A stretch of DNA of 64,000 nt from Cenarchaeum sp. (GTDB taxonomy: Archaea; Thermoproteota; Nitrososphaeria; Nitrososphaerales; Nitrosopumilaceae). The position numbers were made by a program, and so were the translations under genes. Below the pieces are notes generated by a model, which did no database searches, was not told the DNA's origin, and saw only the letters and a program-made list of their open reading frames with translations. Shown piece by piece: positions 17,448-17,991 of this stretch (its first letter is position 1; every line of letters starts with the position of its first letter). Location: the NCBI GenBank assembly GCA_965242695.1, contig CBDESU010000002.1, forward strand, positions 416,001-480,000, written 5' to 3'.

Positions 17448-17474
17448 AAAAAAAACACACCGTGGCGGTGTGTT
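17448..17474 (-). terminator. hairpin plus T-tract downstream of micro-ORF 1
   Basis: 9-bp stem AACACACCG/CGGTGTGTT running into a T8 tract on the minus strand. Confidence 0.7.
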
Positions 17475-17481
17475 CTTCACC

Positions 17482-17553
17482 CTACATCAATTTGTAGACC
17501 GAATTGATTACTCTTAGCGGCGCTTTTGCTCGTTGTATACGATGTTTCGTCAT
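17482..17553 (-). CDS. 23-aa micropeptide, copy 1 (MTKHRIQRAKAPLRVINSVYKLM)
   Basis: SD GGAGGTG at 17562-17568, TTTATATAT at about 17613-17621, downstream terminator, homolog at 50824-50895. Confidence 0.75.
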   Translation of the reverse strand: MTKHRIQRAKAPLRVINSVYKLM

Positions 17554-17991
17554 ATCATGGACACCTCCGTACCTATTACTACGTGCATGTTACTAATAAG
17601 GTTATCGATAAGATATATAAATCTTGATATTCAACATAATGCAAAAAAGCTGGTAGTGCTAACTAGTCAATAGTTTACATATAAAACATCGAAAACGGGA
17701 GGATGCCGAAAAGGCGGTGAAAATCCACAAAGCTTCAAAAACAACAGGGATGGTTGAAGTCGTGCGGCAGGTTCAGCCCCGCGGGGCAGGCCGAGGCGCT
17801 GTGCAGCCGTGGCATGCCCTGCTGTGCCGGCCGATCAAGTCCGTGTCGGCGGGTAGCACCAAGAAGGACGCGGAGTAGCCCGAGCCCAAGACACTTGCAT
17901 CCCGACTGATCATGGTCCCCGTATCCTGCCGTCCGTGAGGGGCGCGGCGAGACAGATTATTCAGGGGAGTGGGGGCAGGGACAAGCAGGTC

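Follow-up and report, generated by a model that had tools for sequence, protein, structure and literature searches.

A probable, genus-restricted small-protein gene in two diverged copies within a defence island of a Cenarchaeum sp. genome

We describe a very short gene that occurs twice on the minus strand of a 64,000-nucleotide (nt) stretch of DNA from Cenarchaeum sp. (hereafter the window, C2:416001-480000 of a 3.89-Mb genome in 2 contigs). Each copy consists of a 23-codon open reading frame (ORF) that is preceded by a TATA box and a Shine-Dalgarno (SD) sequence and followed by a hairpin and a run of T. The two ORFs remain alike, with a substitution pattern of the coding type, although the DNA on either side of them can no longer be aligned, and the whole cassette is found nowhere else in the genome. 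As judged from the DNA, this is probably a real small-protein gene, and within the material searched it is confined to one genus. The explanation that we favour as a whole, and hold with moderate confidence, is that the copies are self-contained micro-genes, translated by way of their SD sequences, whose basic peptide would act in trans.

Anatomy and rarity of the cassette

An earlier, sequence-only reading of this stretch had proposed a 23-residue ORF on the minus strand (copy 1), with a TATA box, a GGAGGTG SD sequence, a hairpin and T-run terminator and an AT-rich setting. The ORF was located and is closed by TAG, and every one of these signals is present in the sequence (Table 1). The patch around copy 1 has a guanine-plus-cytosine (GC) content of 0.34-0.47 over 17375-17675, against 67-68% for the genome. 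With a spacing of 28 nt between the TATA box and the start of transcription, copy 1 would be transcribed from near position 17593 and carry a leader of about 40 nt; the same spacing would give copy 2 a leader of about 18 nt.

The 3' end of the 16S ribosomal RNA (rRNA) reads GGATCACCTCCT, which makes GGAGGTG a perfect 7-nt complement. The GGGGGTG of copy 2 departs from that complement at a single position, where a G-U pair with the 16S end would form. A 43-residue version of the copy 2 ORF exists by way of in-frame ATGs further upstream; these longer starts should not be transcribed, since their ATGs lie at or before the TATA box.

The complete arrangement was sought on both genome strands. It was defined as a TATA-like hexamer no more than 90 nt 5' of an SD-like pentamer, a spacer of 4-11 nt, an ATG, an ORF of 10-60 residues and, at most 70 nt from the stop, T5 together with a perfect stem of 6 bp or more. 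The full cassette was found at 2 loci in the 3.89 Mb, and these are copies 1 and 2. As to base rates, there are 1270 SD-led short ORFs, of which 19 have the TATA hexamer, 46 have T5 and 2 have the hairpin with T-run. The octamer TTTATATA of the two TATA boxes occurs 30 times genome-wide, both strands counted.

Comparison of the two copies

The homologue announced by the earlier reading, some 33 kb away, equal in length and sharing 16 of 23 residues, was recovered at 50824-50895. The copies lie 33,342 nt apart, and in a six-frame scan the next-best ungapped window sites reach 8 of 23 identical residues. A tblastn search of the genome returned copy 1 itself (E=2.7e-10), copy 2 (E=8.6e-6) and next a match at E=1.4, copy 2 being the only credible homologue. 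The same two copies are the only ones in the genome that nhmmer detects with the 131-nt module. When 8 kb around each copy were compared, the shared segment was confined to the SD sequence, the ORF and the terminator (17450-17568 versus 50792-50910); the flanks and the neighbouring genes are unrelated and unalignable. The ORFs have kept 74% nucleotide and 70% residue identity while these flanks diverged. Overall, copies 1 and 2 are old paralogues.

The two ORFs differ at 19 of 72 nucleotides, distributed 7/2/10 over the three codon positions. Counted by codon, 8 differences are synonymous only and 7 are non-synonymous. All eight residues that had been singled out as identical in spite of different synonymous codons (T2, R5, I6, R8, K10, A11, L13 and S18) proved correct in this comparison. 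Moreover, the frame of the proposed peptide is the sole frame open in both copies, the other frames carrying stops. In a frame-blind simulation, the same number and type of substitutions were placed at random in copy 1 over 200,000 trials. At least 16 of 23 residues stayed identical in 1.3% of the trials (P=0.013), and in 0.18% (P=0.0018) when the start, the open frame and the stop also had to be kept.

By the Nei-Gojobori method, the non-synonymous divergence dN is 0.16 and the synonymous proportion pS is 0.73, with the synonymous divergence dS near saturation. Selection on the peptide, as the earlier reading had argued, is supported by these values and by simulation P values of 0.004-0.013 across the family; the dN/dS comparison shows the synonymous excess in a small sample with saturated dS. 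Frame-breaking indels and stops were looked for among the homologues and none was found in the three members (the third is described below), all of which keep start and frame. For the low-GC genes of the island, a GC frame plot gave no information.

The same comparison bears on whether the RNA rather than the peptide is selected. The unit has the size of a small regulatory RNA, with its own promoter and terminator, and could be a regulatory or dual-function RNA that base-pairs through GTCTACAAA..TGAT. The codons of V19-Y20-K21 (GTCTACAAA) and the following TGAT, at the 3' end of the ORF, are indeed nucleotide-identical in all three members, synonymous sites included, whereas synonymous sites in other parts are close to saturation. 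A 5-bp hairpin spanning the stop codon could moreover form from CTACA..TGTAG in copies 1 and 2. Pairing is also maintained in the terminator hairpin, at 15 of 16 cells over the two copies, with compensatory changes at two of the eight pairs (C-G to U-A and G-C to A-U).

Apart from this terminator, however, the predicted structures differ between the copies, and the folds are no more stable than shuffled sequences (z=-1.45 and -0.56 for copies 1 and 2, and -0.24 for the third member). Rfam 15 gave no match at the gathering score over the whole window. The substitution pattern is aware of the frame, and the SD sequence, start, frame and length are what all three members keep, whereas the terminator of the third differs in sequence. 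We judge an RNA-based explanation unlikely, though worth keeping in view.

A third member and the distribution of the family

A profile made from the two sequences was run against 401 genomes of the family and gave one match with E<0.05 outside the genome itself (E=0.0033). It comes from G004, the 3.7-Mb genome of a sister species in the same genus, and is accepted as a third member for its added features (same genus, start, length, SD sequence and T-run) and not for its score. Its product, MTAFRSRKALPDLRTIDAVYKMIK, has 24 residues, exactly one codon more than the others, and its start aligns with residue 1. GGGGGTG stands five nt ahead of the ATG, the ORF sits in an AT-rich patch (GC 0.45 versus about 0.7 around it), and a long hairpin is followed directly by T7, this terminator being unlike those of copies 1 and 2 in sequence.

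Eight residues are invariant in the three members: M1, T2, R5, A9, L13, V19, Y20 and K21. Two of them illustrate the use of different codons, R5 being encoded by CGT and CGC in the window copies and by AGA in the sister species, and L13 by CTA and TTG in the window and by CTG in the sister species. The simulated P of the observed residue identity between the third member and copies 1 and 2 is 0.004 and 0.009, respectively. The surrounding genes, which have nothing in common with the window, encode one TIR and one TPR protein, a DDE transposase and products without assigned function.

The family is thus far present in 2 of the 5 genomes of the genus. A three-sequence profile found nothing in G001, G002 and G017 and only a chance-level match in G003, which falls within a 110-residue frame; run on the 401 family genomes and on viral contigs, it added no further member. 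No credible homologue came from a protein search at the level of the order (401 genomes) or from a DNA search in 40 relatives. Pattern matches in genome contigs (15), viral contigs (34 and 74) and metagenome contigs (121) yielded no confirmed case. The searched set included four genomes flagged as unpublished (G444, G443, G283 and G564), which enter here solely as genomes with no credible match.

Several weak matches were rejected as chance because of the longer frames that contain them. L005 and G441 lie inside ORFs of 482 and 506 residues, respectively, in another frame; L006 and L007 fall within open frames of 108 and 122 residues, and G444 and G424 within open frames of 259 and 449 residues. 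Searching by synteny, the HEPN neighbour of copy 1 led to 7 distant metagenome loci (28-48% identity over short parts) with no micro-ORF-like match, and the 377-residue neighbour led to no loci.

Within the genus, three of five genomes measure 3.2-3.9 Mb, and a genome from another genus has 4.3 Mb (the set being G000, G002, G004 and G017); the rest of the family are mostly of 1.1-1.8 Mb, with several of 1.9-2.6 Mb and one, G007, of 0.8 Mb. The micro-gene was seen only in two of the enlarged genomes.

Variation in related strains

Over the copy 1 locus, runs X2 and X5 have contigs that match the window without a difference. Run X6, a sponge metagenome with a relative that is about 95% identical, covers 16500-17866. 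It shows 8 indels in 16882-17448 (2 in 16935-16987 and 6 in 17119-17448), which is why this interval is probably non-coding or a decayed gene. The interval 17449-17599 is free of indels, apart from the T-run, which is shorter by one T.

At 17595/17599 the X6 contigs are interrupted, overlapping by 5 nt, and their loose ends open with an 18-nt inverted repeat. In the genome under study the same 18-mer is present in 4 forward and 4 reversed copies, which form pairs about 1.5 kb apart. Given these paired inverted repeats and the 5-nt duplication, an insertion sequence lies at 17595-17599 in X6; four copies of it are present in the genome itself (Table 1). The X6 contigs also break at 17035-17044, where the loose ends are mutually reverse-complementary, which suggests a short palindromic replacement.

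These data bear on the possibility that the micro-gene is a functionless relic carried in with AT-rich foreign DNA, the selection signal then being a small-sample effect. A family of three members only, missing from 3 of 5 genomes of the genus, disrupted by an insertion sequence in the copy 1 promoter of X6 and lacking any function-bearing motif that we could find, would suit such a relic. Set against this are the identity that the ORFs retain despite unalignable flanks, the intact start, stop and SD sequence of all three members, the simulation P values and the compensatory changes in the hairpin. We therefore regard a relic as rather unlikely.

Expression signals of the host

For 1276 likely genes, taken as long ORFs with a high GC content at third codon positions, the upstream sequence shows a sharp peak of AT-rich hexamers at -32 to -27 from the first ATG or GTG, with 141 at -28 versus a background of about 8. 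AT-rich boxes some 28-29 nt upstream are characteristic of leaderless transcripts. For SD-like pentamers there is a small peak at -17 to -11 (22 at -14 versus a background of about 3), and the SD sites of the micro-ORFs, with a spacing of 5-9 nt across the three members, fit this genome-wide position. Most genes of this genome would appear to be leaderless, with a minority using SD sequences. Our counts agree with the GeneMarkS-2 classification, which places 11 of 11 Thaumarchaeota in the leaderless-dominated class, with a ribosome-binding site (RBS) on the remaining genes (PMC6028130). The earlier description of the gene as leadered among leaderless neighbours is supported at the scale of the whole genome, not for its neighbours in particular.

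TAG is an ordinary stop in this genome, since it terminates 1045 of 2167 long ORFs and no transfer RNA (tRNA) with a CUA anticodon is found among 45 tRNAs. Pyrrolysine insertion or other read-through of TAG is rejected on the same grounds.

Properties of the peptide

The peptide carries a net charge of +6 in copy 1, +5 in copy 2 and +4 in the sister species (counted from the sequence). Arg and Lys abound in its N-terminal half; its C-terminal half, which is moderately hydrophobic, is the best conserved part and follows the pattern L-x-x-[IV]-[ND]-x-V-Y-K-[LM]. Mean Eisenberg hydrophobicity is -0.19 (copy 1) and -0.13 (copy 2). There is no hydrophobic transmembrane span; charged residues are spread over the whole peptide, the longest stretch without one having 6 residues. 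The helical moment of the whole peptide is 0.33 and 0.22 in copies 1 and 2 (P=0.22 and 0.52 versus shuffles), and clear amphipathicity is limited to residues 13-23 of copy 1 (P=0.005; P=0.11 in copy 2). Searches of Pfam and NCBIfam with both window peptides returned 0 families at E up to 10, and 0 chains of the PDB match copy 1. With Rfam likewise empty, the description of the family as unannotated is borne out.

Magainin-like and phenol-soluble-modulin-like peptides resemble the micropeptide in being cationic, about 23 residues long and free of a signal peptide, and in having genes that annotation misses. An amphipathic antimicrobial peptide is nevertheless unsupported here, as the moment of the whole peptide does not exceed that of shuffles.

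A type I-like toxin of a toxin-antitoxin or abortive-infection system, with its mRNA kept in check by an antisense RNA, would agree with the size, the stand-alone cassette, the strong SD sequence and the patchy, multiple copies. It would also suit the islands concerned, which hold HEPN, TIR-STAND, Avs4-like, SIR2, GmrSD and transposase genes. Type I toxins such as Hok, TisB and Fst are hydrophobic membrane peptides with an antisense RNA partner. They share with the micro-gene a length of about 20-35 residues, an own promoter, a strong RBS, a terminator, and patchy occurrence in several copies within variable islands. The micropeptide differs in being highly basic, in having no hydrophobic span and in having no evident antisense partner: beyond the module there is no conserved sequence to encode such an RNA, and the opposite strand showed no conserved TATA-like box. 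As to the toxin that the sequence-only reading listed among its options, a membrane toxin is unlikely given the lack of a hydrophobic span and a helical moment no higher than that of shuffles, and we consider a type I-like system as such distinctly improbable.

The order of SD sequence, short ORF, hairpin and T-run is also the classical layout of trpL-type attenuators, in which a short ORF stands directly ahead of the hairpin and T-run; a leader peptide controlling a downstream gene in this manner is nonetheless very improbable, because no close co-oriented gene follows at any of the three loci (indel-tolerant DNA of about 570 nt and then a convergent HEPN gene after copy 1; the Avs4-like gene about 1.1 kb past copy 2; and, in the sister species, a downstream ORF whose first non-low-complexity part is about 800 nt away), in the predicted folds the terminator hairpin alone is robust and no conserved antiterminator alternative to it was seen, and the peptide sequence, for which attenuators have no need, is conserved.

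Proposed explanation

We hypothesize that each copy forms a short monocistronic unit made of a TATA box, a leader of about 18-40 nt, an SD sequence, the 23-codon ORF, a hairpin and a T-run. Its own promoter would drive each unit, and initiation would be SD-dependent in an archaeon that is mostly leaderless. The product would be a strongly basic, free-standing small protein of 23-24 residues. Since the copies lie in three unrelated neighbourhoods, the protein most likely acts in trans and a fixed two-gene partnership is unlikely; the earlier suggestion of a regulator of nearby effectors is unsupported, the three copies having no common neighbour gene. Under the mechanism that we prefer, the basic half would bind an acidic partner (a nucleic acid, the ribosome or an acidic surface on a protein), specificity would come from the conserved C-terminal half, and the role would lie in the conflict or mobile-element biology of the variable islands.

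Among known systems, the closest class is that of small proteins of at most 50 residues found by ribosome profiling and comparative genomics. Unannotated small proteins are described for the archaeon Haloferax volcanii in the account of its small proteome (PMC10117724), and small-protein families of the human microbiome offer a further comparison (bioRxiv 10.1101/494179). The micro-gene is like these in being a tiny stand-alone ORF below length cut-offs, with evidence from frame, start, RBS and synonymous changes. It is unlike them in that the searches showed no sequence relation to any described family, in that it occurs, as far as searched, in one genus and in being known from sequence alone.

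Several observations weigh against the explanation that we favour. In X6, the insertion sequence separates the TATA box of copy 1 from its SD sequence, and copy 1 should be dispensable or silenced there. No credible copy is present in three further genomes of the genus (G001, G002 and G003), and about 1.3 matches as good as that of the sister species are expected by chance over the 401 genomes. The dN/dS ratios, about 0.06 between the paralogues and 0.28-0.42 versus the third member, are imprecise because dS is saturated and there are only three sequences from two species. As the criteria of the cassette scan were chosen post hoc, it attests uniqueness and gives no clean P value. The invariance of GTCTACAAA hints at an added constraint at the RNA level. 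Finally, the peptide has no recognisable fold or motif, and no neighbouring gene is common to copies 1, 2 and the third member.

A more specific version would make the micro-gene a mobile, self-contained gene with a part in archaeal antiviral or inter-element conflict, spreading between variable islands of sponge-symbiotic ammonia-oxidising archaea on its own promoter-to-terminator cassette. The peptide might then be a trans-acting effector or modulator, for example of nucleic-acid-targeting HEPN, TIR or STAND systems, or a toxin of abortive infection with ribosomes or nucleic acids as its target. We find this version rather doubtful. We know of no micropeptide component of thaumarchaeal defence islands, and searches of the literature brought up none.

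Genes as short as this one escape standard annotation, and the small proteins of Thaumarchaeota are essentially uncharted. The locus is an unusually clean candidate, with a genome-unique cassette, two old paralogues, a member in another species and frame-aware substitutions. If the peptide does act in the islands that hold all three copies, archaeal immunity would gain a micropeptide layer; otherwise the locus could serve as a positive control for the discovery of small ORFs in leaderless-dominated, GC-rich archaeal genomes.

Genomic setting

The organism is archaeal by its small-subunit rRNA (1450.5 bits with the archaeal model versus 1085.6 with the bacterial one) and encodes an archaeal AmoA (E=2e-118), which marks it as an ammonia oxidiser. 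Parts of the window also occur in sponge metagenomes. The high GC content of the genome fits that of sponge-associated Thaumarchaeota, for which a range of 47-67% is published (PMC7848895).

The whole window (1-64000) is a dense mosaic defence island with a lower and variable GC content of 0.49-0.76 per kb. Matches to Pfam and PADLOC include KwaB-like, Schlafen/AlbA_2, ThiF with SIR2, Dsr1-like, GmrSD and another SIR2 protein, as well as a TIR-STAND-HEAT protein of 1669 residues and an Avs4-like NTPase of 1712 residues. Copy 1 is flanked by two HEPN proteins, and a TGT/DpdA-like gene is divergent from copy 2. Several large proteins of the island have no family. On the 3' side of copy 1, the DNA that precedes the convergent HEPN gene (16882-17448) is GC-rich and has overlapping long ORFs on both strands.

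Table 1. Positions of the features of the two micro-gene copies and of related elements (window coordinates unless a contig or locus is named)
Feature	Position	Strand	Remarks
Copy 1 micro-ORF	17482-17553 with TAG (17485-17553 without stop)	minus	23 codons; product MTKHRIQRAKAPLRVINSVYKLM
Copy 1 TATA box TTTATATA	17614-17621	minus	begins 68 nt 5' of the ATG; read from the sequence
Copy 1 SD sequence GGAGGTG	17562-17568	minus	8-nt spacer to the ATG at 17553
Copy 1 TAG stop	17482-17484	minus
Copy 1 hairpin	17455-17473	minus	8-bp stem, 3-nt loop
Copy 1 T8 run	17448-17455	minus	archaeal termination signal
Copy 2 micro-ORF	50824-50895 with TAG (50827-50895 without stop)	minus	23 residues; product MTKYRIRRAKASLLVVDSVYKMM
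Copy 2 TATA box TTTATATA	50934-50941	minus	begins 46 nt 5' of the ATG
Copy 2 SD sequence GGGGGTG	50905-50911	minus	9 nt ahead of the ATG
Copy 2 hairpin	50798-50814	minus	7-bp stem, 3-nt loop
Copy 2 T6 run	50792-50797	minus
Invariant GTCTACAAA block	17488-17499; 50830-50841; L026 9803-9817
Insertion sequence of about 1.5 kb	C1:1064306; C1:1304872; C1:1341923; C2:599238		18-nt terminal inverted repeats; 4 copies in the genome itself

A repeat of about 92 nt lies at 17992-18083, directly past the stop of the gene for the 377-residue protein (18089-19222, minus strand). By blastn it has 11 copies in the genome, with 79-100% identity. In runs X2 and X5 the contigs cover it about 10 times as deeply as its flanks, and run X7 has depth essentially nowhere else. 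The repeat looks like a miniature mobile element.

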